A stretch of DNA of 64,000 nucleotides from Octopus vulgaris (lineage: Eukaryota), in NCBI GenBank assembly GCA_951406725.2, contig OX597817.1, positions 132,308,001 through 132,372,000 on the forward strand, written 5' to 3'. Below are positions 8,651-51,960 of this stretch, one piece after another (position 1 is the first letter of the stretch; each line of letters begins with the position of its first letter). The position numbers and the translations under genes are program-made. The notes beneath the pieces were generated by a model. It ran no database searches, was not told the origin of the DNA, and worked only from the letters and a program-made list of their open reading frames with translations.

Positions 8651-8830
8651 AGATCGCTAGCCACTATACCTTTTTCTATTTTCTCTCCCTGTTTCTTTCT
8701 GTTTCCTTTCTGTTGAAGAGCGTAGGCTCGAAACGTAAAACACTTTCTCACTTCCCGTGCGTTAAACTAATACATCTGTGTGTTGTTTACACACCCGTCT
8801 TCGTTTTGTTTTTTGTAAATTCTCACTACA
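8647..8830 (+). mobile_element. Solo PLE pseudo-LTR, family A, with HHR-like motif (core at 8710)
   Basis: ctttCTGTTGAAgagcgtaggctcGAAACGTAaaa; same family as 10020-10405, 41390-41550 and 60052-60238; TA-flanked. Confidence 0.75.
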
Positions 8831-10415: not shown

Positions 10416-11277
10416 TACTCTTTTACTTGTTTCAGTCATTTGACTGCGTCCATGCTGGAGCACCGCCTTTAGTCAAGCAAATCGACCCCGGGACTTATTC
10501 TTTGTAAGCCCAGTACTTATTCTATCGGTCTCTTTTGCCGAACCGCTAGATTACGGGGACGTAAACACACCATCATCGGTTGTCAAGCAATGCTAGGGGG
10601 ACAAACACAGACAAACAAACACATACACACATACATACACACATACATACACACGCACATACGCACATACACATATACATACACACATGTACACACACAC
10701 ATACATACACACATACATACATACATACACACCCACATACACACATACACGTATGCACACATACATACATACATACACACACACATATACGCATGCACAC
10801 ATACATACATACACACACACATACATATATACACACACACACGTACACACACACATACTACAAACAAAACACACACACGATACATATACATATACATACA
10901 CACACATACCTCTTTGTTTTTGACCTGCGATTGGACCCACAACACCACTCCTTAATTCTTACTACTAGCCTGCTACCCAGTTGTTCGCCATACACACACA
11001 CACACGCACACACACACTTGTCATCATCGCATACTTTCTTTACCATACTGTCTTTGATATAGCTCTCCTGTCTCTTGAAAAACTTTATTCTTCTACTTTT
11101 ACCACTTCCGTCTTTTAGTATGTGACCTCGTCTGTATCACTAGCGATTTTTTCCCCTGTCTTCCCTTCTCGGGATCTTTCCTTCTCCTATGTTTCCGACG
11201 AAGAGCGTCCTGAGCGTCCAACAATACTTTATTTGTTCCACGTCCTTGCGTTGTTGTTTTTGTTTTCTTGTTTGGAT

Positions 11278-11343
<66 letters not shown>

Positions 11344-22440: not shown

Positions 22441-22481
<41 letters not shown>

Positions 22482-22753
22482 CCACGTGAATCAATGGCGA
22501 TTTTCTTCCTCCGTCCTCCCATCTATTGGATTTCCATCTGTTTCCGAAGAAGAGCGTCTACTTGAAACATTAAACCATCTTTCTTTCATTTCCTTAGCGT
22601 CTACTAATACATTACTTGTACCAAGTCCTCACGTTGTTGTATTTTTTTGTTTGTTCTTCTTAGGATTTACTTATATATATATACATTAAAATTTTATGTC
22701 AAGTATGATAAAGTTTCCAATTTCATATATTTTCGTCTTTTTCTTCTTCACAG

Positions 22754-26108: not shown

Positions 26109-26111
<3 letters not shown>

Positions 26112-26314
26112 TAATCCAAACGGGAAAACAGAAAAAACAACAACACGTGTAACAATTAAAGTATTATTATTAGGCGCTCAGGAAAGAGGGAAGAAGGAGG
26201 GTATGACGTTTCGAGCGGAGCTCTTCGTCGGAAACATACGAGAAGGAAGAAAGAAAAATCCCGAGGTTGGCGAACAGAGGGAAAAAAAACGCGACTGGTT
26301 TTTACGAAGTAAAC
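26109..26314 (-). mobile_element. Solo PLE pLTR, family B, with HHR-like motif at 26201-26235
   Basis: Minus strand gtttCCGACGAAgagctccgctcGAAACGTCatac; closely matches 43857-44070; (TA)n on both sides. Confidence 0.8.
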
Positions 26315-26332
26315 ATATATATATATATATAT

Positions 26333-43737: not shown

Positions 43738-43797
<60 letters not shown>

Positions 43798-43856
43798 TAA
43801 TAATAAACAATAATATATAAGTGTATATATACATATATATGTATATATATATAATT

Positions 43857-44845
43857 TTAATCCAAACGGGAAAACAAAAAAACAACAACAGTGGAACAAT
43901 TACAGTATTATTATTAATAGGCGCTCAGGAAATATGGAAGCAGGAAGGTATGACGTTTCGAGCGGAGCTCTTCGTCGGAAACATAAAGAAGGAAGAGAGA
44001 GGAAAGAAAGATCCCAAAGTGGGCAACAGGAGATGGAGAAAAAAACGACTGGTGTTTACGAAGTACACATGGTGAAAGGCGGAAGTTTACGATAACAAGA
44101 GCAAAGTAGGTTTTTAAAGCCAAAAGAGTGGAGACAGGGTTGGTAACGCAACAGATGTGTGTGTATGTGTGAGTGTGTGCGTGTGCGTGTGTGTATGTGT
44201 GTGTGAGGCGAGATAAAAAAACAAAAAATATATGTATGTGTTAGTGTGTGCGTCTGTGTGTAGGCGTGTCAGGTAGGGCGAACAGTAGTAGGCAACAGAC
44301 AAGTGGTCAGTAGTAAGAAAATGAAGGAAGGAGGAAGGGAGGGAGGGGAAGGGGTGGGGGCGTATGTAACGTGCCAGCGTGTGTTGAGTAGTAGTGTGTG
44401 TGTGTCCAGTGTCGTGGTAGTATTAATGGCGAGTAGATTTGAATGTGTGTAAGAGTAATGTATATATTTAAGCAATGTGTATATGTGAGTGGGTGTATGT
44501 ATGTGTGCGTGTGTGTGTAACAAAAAAGGGGGGTTAAGGAAAAAGGACTCCAGCTGAGGGGAAGATGGAAGAGTGGTCCCGCGGAGACGGGCGTGGGAGA
44601 ACCCAACGACAGGCGACGGTCCCAGGAACGAGGGGGAGGTCTCGTCGGGTCCAAGAGCGAGGTGCATGCAGCGCGTATGCGTGCGCGAACCGGCGCAAGC
44701 GCGTGTGAGCGCGCCTGCGAGTGTGCGCGTAAGTATGTATGTGTGTGGATGTGTGAGTGTGTCTGTGTGTATGTCTGGGTGTCAGTGTGTCCGATGAATG
44801 TATGTGAGTATGTGTGTATATATGTGTGTGCATAGATGTATGTCC

Positions 44846-44876
<31 letters not shown>

Positions 44877-47274
44877 AGTGTGTATGTATGTACGTGTGGG
44901 TGTGTGGAAGTGTGTGTATGTGCATGTGTGTGCGCGTACATACAGGTGTGTGAGTGAGTGTGTGTGTGTGTATGTATGTGTGAGTGTGTATGTATGTGTG
45001 TGTAGGATGCATGTATGTGTATGGGTGTATGTATGTGTGTGTGTATGTATGTATGTGTACGTGCGTGTGTGTGTGTGTATGCGTGTAGGTGTGCGCGTGT
45101 GCATGCATGCATGCATGTGCGTATGTGTGTGTGTGTGCATGTGTGTGGGTATAAATGTGTGTGCGTATATGTGTGTGTATGTGCGTACATGTGTGTGTGT
45201 GTATACATGTGTGTGTATGTAGGTGTGTAGGCGTGTGTGTATAGGTGTATGTATGTAAGTATGTATGGGTGTGTCCGTGTATGTGTGTGTATGTATGTGT
45301 GTGTAGGTGTGTGGGCGTGTGTATATAGGTGTATGTATGTCTGGGTGTGTCCGTGCATGTTTGTGTGTGTGTGTGTGTATGCATGTGTATGTAGGTGTGT
45401 GTGTACGTGTGTAATGTATGTGTGTATGCGTGTGTGTGCGTGTGTATGCGTGCGTGTGTGTATGTAGGTGCGTATGTATGTGTGTGGGAGTGTAGGTGTG
45501 TGTGTGCGTGTGCGTGTTTATGTTGGTGTGTGCGTATGTGAGTGTGAGTGTATGGGTGTTTGTCATGCATGTGTGTGCGCGTGCAGGCGAGTGTGTGTGT
45601 AAGTATGTGTGTGTGTATGTTTGTGTGAGTGTGTATGTGTGTATGTCTGTGTGTGTGTATGTGCGTATAGGAGTATGTAGGTATGTGTGTGTGTATGTGT
45701 ATGGGTGTATGTATGTATGTGTGTGTGTATGTGTGCATGTGTATAAGTATATGTGTGTGTGCGTATGTGTGTGTATGTGTATGTGTGTGTGTTTATGTAT
45801 GTGTGTATGTATGTGTGTAGGCGTGTGTGTGTAGATGTGTGTGCGTATGTGTGTGTCTGTATGTGTATGTGTGTGTGTGTAGGTAGGTAGGTGTGTGTGT
45901 CTGAGTGAGGGTATGGCTGTGTAGGTGTGTGTGTGTATGAATGTAAGTGTGTGTGTACAAGTGTAATGTATGTATGTAGGTGTGTGTGTGTGTGTATGTG
46001 TACGTGTGCGTGTGTATGTGTGTGTGTGTATGCGTGTGAGTGTGAGTGTATGGGTGTATGTCTGTGTGTGTGTATGTCTGAAGTAGGTATGTGTGTGTAT
46101 GTATGTATGTGTGTGTGTGCGGGTATGTGTGTGTGTGTGTATGTGTGTGTGTGAGTAGGTGTGCGTGTATGTATGTGGGTAGGGATGCATGCGAGTGTGT
46201 GGGTATGTATGCATACATACGCACGCGCACATCCGAAGCAAGCCCACACACACGAAGCGCGCTCACGCACACAACACACAAGCAATACAACGCAAGCCCA
46301 TGGGGCCGACCAAGCCCCAGCGCGCGCCAAGGCGCGCGAGCGCAAAGGCCCTCGAACGACCCGCTACGCGGGAACCGAGGATCCATCAGCCAAAACCGGA
46401 AAGCAGAAAAGAGGGGGGGCTGCCTGGATGCAAAAAGGTGTATGTGTGTGTGCATTCAGTGTAAGGGTGTGCATGTGTGGGTATGTATGTATGTGTGCAC
46501 GTGTGGTGTGTGTGTGTACGTGCGGTGTGTGTGTGTGAGTGTGTGTGTATGTATGTGCGTATGTATGTGTGTATGTATGTGTGTATGTATGTCTGTGTGT
46601 GTATGTGTGTGTGTGTAAGTATGTATGTGTGTGTTTGTAGGGTGAAGATGTAGCGTTGCTCCAAGTGGAGCCTGGAAAGTGGGCGACCATTGTGGGGAGC
46701 GAGACCAAACACTGAGATGTCATCTAGGGAATGGCCGGCCGAGCGGAAGTGGCGTGCGACGGGAGAAAAAGAGTGTAGGCGAACGTCCCTCAAATGTTCT
46801 GTGAATCGGTCGGACAACCGGCGTCCCGTCTGTCCTACATACAGCATCCCGCATAGGTTGCATTTAATGCAGTAAATAAGGCCAGACGAGGTGCACGTAA
46901 AAGAGTGCCTAATGCGTACAGTATGCTGGTTGGAGCCGGTGACAGCGGTGGTGTTGGTGATGAAGGGGCAAGTGTTGCAGCGGGATCTAGAGCAAGGGAA
47001 TGATCCGTGTGGGGCTGAGGGGGAAGGAGAGAGGGTGCTGTGGACCAGGAGGTCACGCAGATTGCGGGCTCGTTTGAAGGAGGACAGGGGTGGGTTTGGG
47101 AAAATGGGGCGGGTGGTGGGATCAAGCTGGAGGCGACGGAAGGCACGTAGTATCTTGCGACGAAGGGGTAGGGTAGAGGGGTGGAAAAGGAGGGGGAAGG
47201 GGGTGCGGTTGGGGGGTGGGCGGGGGAAGGAGACAGGGCGGTGGTGCGGTCGATGCGACGGCGCGGGTGAGGGC
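43857..47274 (-). mobile_element. 5'-truncated Penelope-like retroelement (Neptune-type): GIY-YIG, long (CA)-rich 3' region, family B pLTR with HHR (43948-43982)
   Basis: Co-oriented endonuclease, UTR and pLTR ending at (TA)n. Confidence 0.8.
46633..47274 (-). CDS. PLE GIY-YIG endonuclease domain with upstream Cys linker (partial ORF)
   Basis: SFKRARNLRDLLVHS, FPCSRSRCNTCPFI, FTCTSSGLIYCIKCNLCGMLYVGQTGRRLSDRFTEHL, SPVARHF...H, EQRYIFTL. Confidence 0.93.
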
Positions 47275-48165
<891 letters not shown>

Positions 48166-48999: not shown

Positions 49000-49115
49000 T
49001 GTATATATATATACATACTCCTTCTTCTCTTTTTCCTGAGTGCCTAATAATAATACTTTAATTGTTCCACCTCCTTGTGTTGTTGTTTTTTCTGTTTTCT
49101 CGTTTGGATTAACCT

Positions 49116-49212
<97 letters not shown>

Positions 49213-49644: not shown

Positions 49645-50852
49645 GGGTTGGTAACTAATTTCCCGCCGCTTTTTAAAATTAAACATTTTTGAAAGGTTTA
49701 ATGAAAAAAATAACAACTAATTAATCAATAATGTATTCACCCTTGTTTACAACTTCTTCCCAATGTTCAACAAGATTTTCAATACCTCATTGGTAGAAAT
49801 CACCCGATTTCGTCTCGAAAAATTAATCTAACCAAGCTCTCAATTCTGCATCAGTATTAAACGAAACTCCGCGCATAGCATTTGAAAGAGATCGAAAGAG
49901 GTAGAAATCCGTTGGTGCCAAATCAGGAGAGTATAGCGAGTGTGGCAGCACTTCCTAGCCATGCGTTTGAATGGCTTTCTTGGTCATATTGGCGATATGA
50001 GGGCGGGCGTTGTCGTGCAGCAGGACTCCATGCTGACGATTAGGTCTTTTCTCTTTAATAGCCGTGTTGAGTCGTTCCATCTGTTGAACATTGAGTTCCG
50101 CGTTGACCGTTTGGTTCCGTTAAAGCAATTCGTAATGGATAATCCCTTCCCAGTCCCACCACAACATCGTTTTACTGGGAAGATCTTGCTTCACGCGCGG
50201 TGTCGCTTGTTTACCGGGGCTAAGCCATTCCTTACGCTGCTTCATATTGATGTACAGGCACCATTTTTCGTCGGCAGTAACGATTCGGGAAAGAAATCGT
50301 TGCTTGTGTCCACGAGTTGAGCAGTGACTAGCAAGCAAACCAGCGGAGATTGTGATTCGTTGATTTTTGTTGTTGAAACTTAAAGTAAGCGGAACCCATG
50401 CTCCATACTTCTGAACCTTTCCCATCGAGTGAAGATGCTTCTCTATAGCAGTTTGGGAGCATTAAATTTTCCCTGCCAGTTCTCTTGCCGTTTGACGAGA
50501 ATTTTCGTGCAAAAGTTGGTTTAATCGCTCTTTATCGAACTCAACTGGACAGCCAGAGCGAGGTGCGTCTTTGAGGTAAAAAATTTCTATTTTTGAACTT
50601 GGCATACCAATCACGAGCGATTCTTTCAGCTTTGGCACCCTCTCCGTACACAGCACAAATGTCACGAGGAGCTTTTGCGGTCTTAGAACCTTGATTAAAA
50701 GCAAAAAGGTGTCAAAAATTCTTGTTTTTCTTAACTTGACATTACATTTTAGTGATCTGAAAATTAAGAAAAATTAACTAAAATTAACTAGAAAAAAAGC
50801 AAAATAGATTTCAAAATTTAAAAAACCGCGAGAACTTAGTTGCCAAACCCTA
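49643..50852 (-). mobile_element. Full-length decayed mariner (DD34D) transposon
   Basis: WVP, IVTADEKW and YSPDLAPTDFYLF motifs; TIRs gggttggtaactaatttcccgccg / gggtttggcaactaagttctcgcgg. Confidence 0.92.
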
Positions 50853-50919: not shown

Positions 50920-51960
50920 AGTAGAAATATGTTACGAAAAGAAAGTATAAAATACACGTGGAAATGTAAGGGTAAAATATGAAAGATTCAACGAAAATGC
51001 ATATTGCAAATAGAAAAAGGCTCTTTATGACAGGTAGTGACAAATATATACATTTAGATTGACTGAGGTAGTAATACGAGTCATAAAGGTCATTATTATG
51101 AGATGATTATACGATGATAATAAAGTAAGAGAACAAAACGTTAGGTCGACAAGGTCTTTCCATTCATTTAAATTAAGGTTGGATTATCACAATATTAAAA
51201 ATCAATTAAACCCAGACTACATTAGCCACAGACGATATAACAACCCTCAGTTCAACCATAATCCAGTACACTACACAACCACTCCACCACAAACATACTA
51301 CCATAGACACACTTTACACCCACCTTTTCCTCAGCAAACCAAACAAAATACAGACCTTCCACTTCAATCCACCTACTACAACCATTTTTGAGACGTAAAC
51401 CAGAGAAACAGAGATGTGAAATGGAACAAAATAAACAAGTCCAACCGAAAATAATCAACCTGTCAAAGAAAATGCTGAGTTCTATACAATTCAAAATCCT
51501 AGGAAGAGGTCTAAAATTTACCCCTACCCCCGCAGATCGAACTCAAATGAAATCAAGGATAATACTTTGGACTTCTGCCGAAAATTACGCCTCATAGAAA
51601 CTTTTTACAACTACACCAGTGAAGATGACTCAATAGTGAAAAACAAAAGTGAGTACCATCCTACAAAAGGTAGAAATAAAGCACTTGATGTTTTCTGTGA
51701 TCACATAACTTGTTTTCCTTACAATACCATTCCAAAACAACATATCAAATCCAACCTTAATTTAAATGAATGGAAAGACCTTGTCGAGCTAACGTTTTGT
51801 TCTCTTACTTTATTTTCATCTTATAATCATCTCATGATAATGACCTTTATGACTCGTATTACTACCTCAGTCAGTCTAAATGTATATATTTGTCACTACC
51901 TGTCATAAAGAGCCTTTTTCTATTTGCAATATGCATTTTCGTTGATTTATCATATTTTAC

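Follow-up and report, generated by a model that had tools for sequence, protein, structure and literature searches.

A young Penelope-like element family of Octopus vulgaris with a CCGA (C4) hammerhead core

Introduction

Hammerhead motifs are nearly universal in Penelope-like elements (PLEs), where they are poor cutters and their role is debated. PLEs average ~3 kb (PMC6765202), and the minimal hammerheads found in metazoan PLEs are already known to include a core variant, U3-A8 (Cervera and de la Pena 2014, PMC4209133). No CCGA core appears among the PLE hammerheads in supplement file 2 of that study, the descriptor of which would miss such cores. In a lizard PLE, the hammerhead is reported to cut only in the presence of protein, uncut RNA is given as the main substrate, and hammerhead (HHR) mutants were unimpaired for insertion in vitro (PMC11167929); furthermore, Naiads are described as having spread without canonical HHRs (PMC8557442). 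The CUGA U-turn of the hammerhead core is treated in 10.1101/2022.01.19.477025. Replacement of U4 by C within this turn is reported from viroids, with activity that is considerably decreased, and cleavage much slower, in vitro but sufficient in vivo (PMC3088659) and, in another study, with no effect on cleavage (PMC9608096). As for O. vulgaris, a repeat annotation names Penelope families with recent activity, and ribozymes go unmentioned in its account of them (PMC13282606). Our literature search returned no report of U4C fixed in a retrotransposon; Lunse et al. (2017) or Ambros and Flores (1998) may already list C4 or U6 PLE cores, and priority is uncertain.

Here, we analyze a PLE copy that lies in a 64,000-nucleotide stretch of O. 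vulgaris contig OX597817.1 (hereafter the window), together with its relatives in the genome (2.80 Gb searched, 227 contigs).

Results

The 3' part of a PLE occupies the minus strand of the window from ~47279 to 43857, in the order given by the initial annotation: a GIY-YIG domain, ~2.5 kb of CA-rich sequence, and a pLTR with a hammerhead motif that matches the annotated sequence (C3 at 43978). The coding piece (46633..47279), delimited by translation, Pfam, and comparison with other copies, comprises the end of the RT thumb, a linker, and the GIY-YIG endonuclease (EN), and the latter lies in a stop-free frame (47315-46386). The domain matches Pfam PF01541 with an E value of 0.0029, under the curated cut-off, and the window EN is 98% identical over 186 aa to the C terminus of a 1,061-residue RT and EN frame found elsewhere (L065). 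The GIY-YIG core reads LIY...YVG (46833..46880), and in translation the cysteines of the CCHH motif are present between GIY and YIG. Upstream of it lies a Zn-finger-like CX4CxxC linker (46968..46994) of the Neptune/Nematis type, and the published linker definition (PMC8557442) would place the family with these elements. The CA-rich 3' untranslated region (UTR; 44076..46632) is common to other copies and contains two GC-rich islands, at ~46200-46440 and ~44510-44730. It is followed by the pLTR unit (43857..44075), equivalent to the solo copies, which has a fixed 3' end and abuts a (TA)n-rich target tract (43740..43856).

The window copy is 5' truncated and has no RT. Two single nucleotides (1-nt deletions) are missing within the first 25 nt, and the loss of ~230 bp at 46633 took away the last 12 codons of the ORF and the stop; therefore, it drives nothing, and it is a dead, non-coding, 5'-truncated member of a young PLE family. 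Next to it, a 318-bp duplication (99% identical; window 47270-47587 and 47849-48165) has its second copy adjoining the 5' end of the element, after a (TATC)n tract, possibly as flanking DNA copied into the 5' junction. The window also contains a 198-bp inverted repeat (50988-51945, 97%) around a fragment that resembles a PLE N-terminal region (RGLKFTPTP) and a remnant of a mariner-like transposase (50120-50773, minus strand; PF01359, E 1.8e-7).

The tie between EN and pLTR is not peculiar to this copy. Taking the 39 best other genome matches to the EN DNA with 10 kb around each, we found the pLTR 2.2-2.9 kb downstream of EN at 37 of the 39 loci, L033 and L066 being the two that lack it, so that copies of this GIY-YIG elsewhere are, as a rule, followed by this pLTR. 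All 44 complete subfamily cores in these EN-selected loci read CCGACGA, and, as had been proposed, a GIY-YIG PLE physically includes the C4 hammerhead. At 10 of the 39 loci, a pLTR of the same subfamily also lies upstream, ~6.2 kb before the position of the downstream one, and the close pLTR pairs of the young subfamily are spaced 5.6-8.4 kb apart. L065 has a stop-free frame with RT and C-terminal GIY-YIG (weak Pfam matches to RVT_1 and GIY-YIG, below cut-off) and an adjoining inverted pLTR copy. The single ORF with RT and C-terminal GIY-YIG that characterizes EN+ PLEs is therefore present in the family, at L065, and absent from the window copy, and the partially tandem or inverted pLTRs of these elements are likewise found (the 10 loci and L065). 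RT-bearing homologs were 43-58% identical among the 120 listed, the nearest proteins elsewhere (53-58% among those listed) being mostly without a name.

The 30 pLTR copies nearest to that of the window are 99-100% identical and share one 3' end, with a variable 5' extent, which points to a young family with ordinary 5' truncation; 29 of them run at the 3' end into a TA-rich repeat and one into the next ORF. Non-LTR retrozymes, which are non-coding short tandem hammerhead repeats, do not describe these copies, which occur dispersed, either as solos or within coding elements. One locus (L070, G000:C1:119856500-119866400) has three young pLTR and UTR ends spaced 2.9-3.0 kb apart and no long ORF. 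The CA- or CT-rich 3' UTR ranges from ~0.65 kb in L209 (family A) through 1.6 kb in L198 to 2.5-2.9 kb in the C4 subfamilies, and these large differences suggest growth through simple-repeat accretion.

The pLTR holds a minimal type I hammerhead (43948..43982, minus strand), for which the model of PMC4209133 predicts cleavage between 43952 and 43951. Set against the canonical core (C3 U4 G5 A6 N7 G8 A9, G12 A13 A14 A15.1, U16.1 H17), every position is matched except U4, which is here C. Stem II is GAGC/GCUC (G10.1-C11.1), and a palindromic ACGU is the candidate dimer helix III, as in minimal type I motifs. Stem I, defined as 4-5 bp, is 4 bp long in family A and at 13 loci of older C4 copies, and it has 3 bp plus a U-U mismatch at 28 loci of the youngest subfamilies. 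The covariation of stem I between the two families, CUUU/AAAG versus GUUU/AAAC, is real, but it amounts to one covarying pair and GUUU/AAAC belongs to the older subfamilies, the window copy itself having GUUU/AUAC.

Exact searches of the genome returned 10,419 motifs with the CCGA core and none with the reversed pattern, indicating that the motif does not occur by chance. The canonical CUGA core gave 6,689 exact matches, and the CUGU core (A6U) of family A 24,206, with 0 in both reversed controls. A looser survey yielded 42,264 matches, of which the first 100 listed, from one end of contig C1 and hence not random, comprised 61 A6U, 21 U4C, 14 canonical, 3 A6C, and 1 double variant; searches that require CUGA thus miss most motifs here, 86 of those 100. 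In the youngest group (1,569 matches), C4 was present in 96 of the 100 listed and U4 in 4. Judging from these sequences, the CCGA core is fixed in this lineage and A6U in the sister family A, which bears out the proposal of a second non-canonical core lineage distinct from family A. Family A hammerheads with the A6U core also occur in the window, at 8710, 10282, and 60114 (plus strand). Rfam listed no hammerhead among 150 of 212 matches (microsatellite and miRNA noise), and a scan of metagenomes for the C4 motif gave 0 matches.

Subfamily comparison revealed a conserved CYGAGCG motif (43921..43929, minus strand) on the 3' side of the cleavage site; it is shared with family A and sits ~20 nt past the predicted site in both families and in all subfamilies. 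It repeats the 5' strand of stem II and could compete for the 3' strand. A distal helix I formed through CYGAGCG found no support, as the pairing partners differ among the subfamily folds.

We built a tree of 94 pLTRs (~200-nt alignments) with position 4 masked. It is ladder-like, with family A and canonical A-like copies followed by U4 subfamilies and then by C4 subfamilies, and it places the window element among the youngest tips; support is mixed, several nodes being weak, and the split between U4 and C4 is violated by L074, L089, and L130. The EN sequences rank in this order by identity to L065 as well, with L256 at 92%, L195 at 81%, L198 (U4) at 67%, and L209 (family A) at 64%. As read from these comparisons, the C4 lineage derives from canonical CUGA ancestors. 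C4 is also present in a few distant copies (L072, L076, L088, and window 22544), implying that the change arose more than once. Decay of CpG as the source of the U4 copies was rejected for the bulk of them because they form older branches, and it could still account for the 4 U4 motifs among 100 of the young subfamily. Of note, L065 (C4) and L202 (U4) are 99.6% identical over 731 aa. L202 (G000:C1:93.33 Mb; 2.0-6.5 kb of the locus) is a young full-length copy with U4 in both pLTRs, and L201 (G000:C1:69.90 Mb) is another with U4 in the 3' pLTR only. At L233, an old U4-type pLTR lies directly 5' of an EN piece of the young family, an arrangement that suggests either an insertion into a second copy or a template switch between the two.

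The solos annotated in the window, which pLTR comparison and the tree assign to older subfamilies, are 73-85% similar to the pLTR of the element. At 26109..26316 (minus strand), a solo pLTR has an intact motif, as annotated, and belongs to the preceding C4 subfamily, with 85% identity to the element's pLTR. The copy at 11050..11281 (plus strand), annotated as a solo at ~11100-11281, is an older C4 copy; a deletion at 11195, running from one GAGC word (stem II) to the other (CYGAGCG), cost it the stem II 3' strand and GAAA, and it runs 5' into UTR-like sequence, so that its hammerhead is not intact and the copy does not qualify as a strict solo. The copy at 22480..22672 (plus strand) does read CCGAAGA, but it is old, its stem II is decayed, and it clusters with an old subfamily that is otherwise mostly U4. 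Finally, the remnant announced at 49020-49095 proved to be a 3' pLTR remnant (49014..49118, plus strand) that starts at the predicted cleavage site, a junction made ambiguous by TA microhomology.

EN was found upstream in 2 of 20 long relatives of the 26109 solo's subfamily. One pLTR (L256), 95% similar to this solo and 85% to the window pLTR, carries its own EN, and own EN copies also occur in an older C4 subfamily, in a U4 subfamily, and in family A (RT-EN, L209). The window copy was initially taken for the autonomous driver of the solos; it has no RT, and the solos belong to older subfamilies with EN copies of their own, so that the element is a late descendant of a solo-making lineage and not the driver of the solos. 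Based on these sequences, "driver" would hold only for the lineage, in which three older solo-type subfamilies have their own EN. About two-thirds of 100 older copies begin within ~45 nt (judged by eye) around a conserved ATG of the pLTR, ~95 nt before the core. Such starts would fit transcription beginning inside the pLTR combined with RT initiation at the pLTR end, as in Poseidon_Ac (PMC11167929). The most plausible view of the solos is that successive subfamilies in one coding lineage left them as short products of insertion.

The motif changed little once C4 was in place. Between the oldest C4 subfamily and the youngest, 25 of 26 motif sites are identical compared with 109 of 158 flank sites (Fisher p 0.003), the sole motif change being U to C at position 17, versus differences at 49 flank sites; this contrast argues that the motif is still constrained. 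Likewise, among 37 young copies, none of 27 motif sites is polymorphic versus 25 of 208 in the flanks. The dimer palindrome is kept, as are C3, G5, G8, A9, G12-A15.1, and U16.1, and position 17 has remained an H (successively A, U, and C). The U-U mismatch of stem I was gained later, after fixation of C4, and imperfect stem I pairs already existed in older U4 subfamilies. Protein binding or a promoter function can also cause such conservation.

Traces of cleavage were sought at the 5' junctions of copies. TA-anchored searches placed 27 of 29 and 19 of 21 distinct 5' junctions at or after the predicted site, with a design that favors junctions near the anchor; the same design on an upstream pyrimidine tract gave 184 reverse-strand matches versus 275, which are numbers of similar magnitude (denominators estimated). 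In an unbiased sample of 100 copies (11 fetched, 4 from the TA-anchored set, and 85 judged on their first 80 nt), 5 junctions fell in the 21 nt that follow the site and 4 in the 27 nt of the core (p 0.74), limiting any excess just after the predicted site to 2-3-fold at most. In this sample, 95 of the 100 copies start upstream of the predicted cleavage site, which fits uncut templates and also re-ligated circles. The predicted minimum-energy folds, of monomers and of dimers, are inactive for C4 and U4 alike, as expected if the motif depends on dimers or cofactors, as described in PMC4209133.

Discussion

On balance, and with moderate confidence, we favor the reading that the window holds a truncated copy of a young PLE family in which U4C became fixed, and that its hammerhead is a likely slowed ribozyme under selection, predicted to cut in a dimer- or protein-dependent manner. 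By analogy with PLE biochemistry, the GIY-YIG domain would nick TA repeats, and the RT would always start at one position, at the 3' end of the pLTR, and copy the RNA toward the 5' end; early stops would leave 5'-truncated copies such as that of the window, and a transcript starting inside an upstream pLTR, with RT initiation at that pLTR, would yield solos of ~210 nt. The C4 base is proposed to weaken the CUGA turn, so that most of the RNA would remain uncut long enough to be translated and copied. The EN-pLTR linkage (37/39), the L065 frame, the (TA)n after 29 of 30 3' ends, the tree, the EN identities, and the conservation of the motif speak for this reading. So do the protein-dependent cutting of the lizard PLE (PMC11167929), the 95 upstream starts in 100, and the reports that viroid ribozymes with U4C have lowered activity but keep it (PMC3088659, PMC9608096), by analogy with which U4C likely slows self-cutting rather than stopping it. 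The statement in PMC9608096 that U4C had no effect on cleavage argues against "slowed," and the U-U mismatch in the 4-bp stem I of the youngest copies, the inactive monomer and dimer folds, and the lack of a significant junction excess weigh against the reading as a whole.

A rival reading, which we regard as unlikely, is a catalytically dead C4 motif that is kept as a binding site for RT-EN, as a structural element for this protein, or as part of a pLTR promoter. Two sister lineages each fixed a change in the CUGA turn (61 A6U and 21 U4C versus 14 canonical among the 100 listed), stem I decayed further in the youngest subfamily, HHR mutants of the lizard PLE showed no insertion defect in vitro (PMC11167929), and Naiads, lacking canonical HHRs, spread all the same (PMC8557442). 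However, the bases conserved in the C4 lineage, together with the dimer palindrome, are precisely the catalytic set, only 1 of the 100 listed motifs combines both changes, and viroid ribozymes with U4C retain activity (PMC3088659, PMC9608096).

We give still less credit to a neutral C4, according to which the dimeric or protein-bound ribozyme cuts as well as with U4 and the change rode along with one master lineage. The unaffected cleavage of PMC9608096 agrees with neutrality, as does the recurrence of U4, without sweeping, in 4 of 100 listed young motifs, among which are the two pLTRs of a single full-length copy; the considerable decrease reported in vitro in PMC3088659 does not, nor does the absence of CCGA from the PLE hammerheads of PMC4209133 (supplement file 2), a comparison tempered by a descriptor that would have missed such cores. 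Finally, the earlier suggestion that the solos represent a separate, non-autonomous cassette of SINE- or retrozyme-like type, mobilized in trans by the subfamily of the window element, is very improbable: the starts clustered around the conserved ATG make them look like discrete units, but every subfamily tested includes longer copies that extend into UTR and has an EN of its own, the solos are 73-85% similar to the window pLTR and branch earlier, and no tandem short arrays were seen among the matches listed.

Returning to a slowed ribozyme under selection, we advance a broader and frankly doubtful hypothesis: two sister PLE lineages each gave up one "invariant" base of the CUGA turn (U4C and A6U), kept the other catalytic bases, and came to outnumber their canonical relatives ~5:1 among the motifs surveyed here because slower, protein-gated cleavage favors transposition. 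The C4 lineage produced several subfamilies after its core change with the rest of the motif conserved, and its ~10,000 copies are a natural test of whether PLEs need their ribozyme. The U4 ancestor, the C4 motifs before and after stem I became mismatched, and the A6U sister form a natural series in which to ask whether cleavage rate is selected, and the near-identical full-length C4 and U4 elements provide a ready-made test pair. PLE hammerheads and sporadic viroid U4C were already known; the fixed high-copy U4C, the A6U sister, and the C4/U4 twins are new here, with the uncertainty on priority stated above.

The octopus family resembles the EN+ PLEs Neptune and Nematis (Craig et al. 2021, PMC8557442) in its single ORF with RT followed by a C-terminal GIY-YIG, in the CCHH motif and the CX2-5CxxC linker (here CX4CxxC, 46994-46968), and in its partially tandem pLTRs, (TA)n targets, and hammerhead near the 3' end; it differs in its unit of ~6.2 kb, its CA-rich 3' UTR of 2.5-2.9 kb, and its non-canonical core. 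The green anole element Poseidon_Ac (Frangieh et al. 2024, PMC11167929) shares AT-rich targets, a pLTR hammerhead, and an internal RT start that gives fixed 3' ends. It belongs to a different clade, and its hammerhead, which overlaps with the start of the ORF, has been demonstrated to cut in the presence of protein, whereas that of the octopus lies ~95 nt inside the pLTR end and its cleavage is predicted from sequence. As for the ribozyme itself, the minimal type I hammerheads that Cervera and de la Pena (2014, PMC4209133) described from metazoan PLEs likewise lack helix III and have a palindromic 15.2-16.2, an extra nucleotide between 9 and 10.1, G10.1-C11.1, and a short stem I, and they occur mostly as solos; the octopus motif departs from them in its fixed U4C without visible compensating change, its stem II of only 4 bp, and its A6U sister lineage. 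The same substitution (CCGA) is known from peach latent mosaic viroid and citrus CtaHVd-LR1 (PMC3088659, PMC9608096), in which it is sporadic and sits in a ribozyme stabilized by tertiary contacts, whereas in the octopus it is fixed, in ~10,000 genomic copies of a minimal motif.
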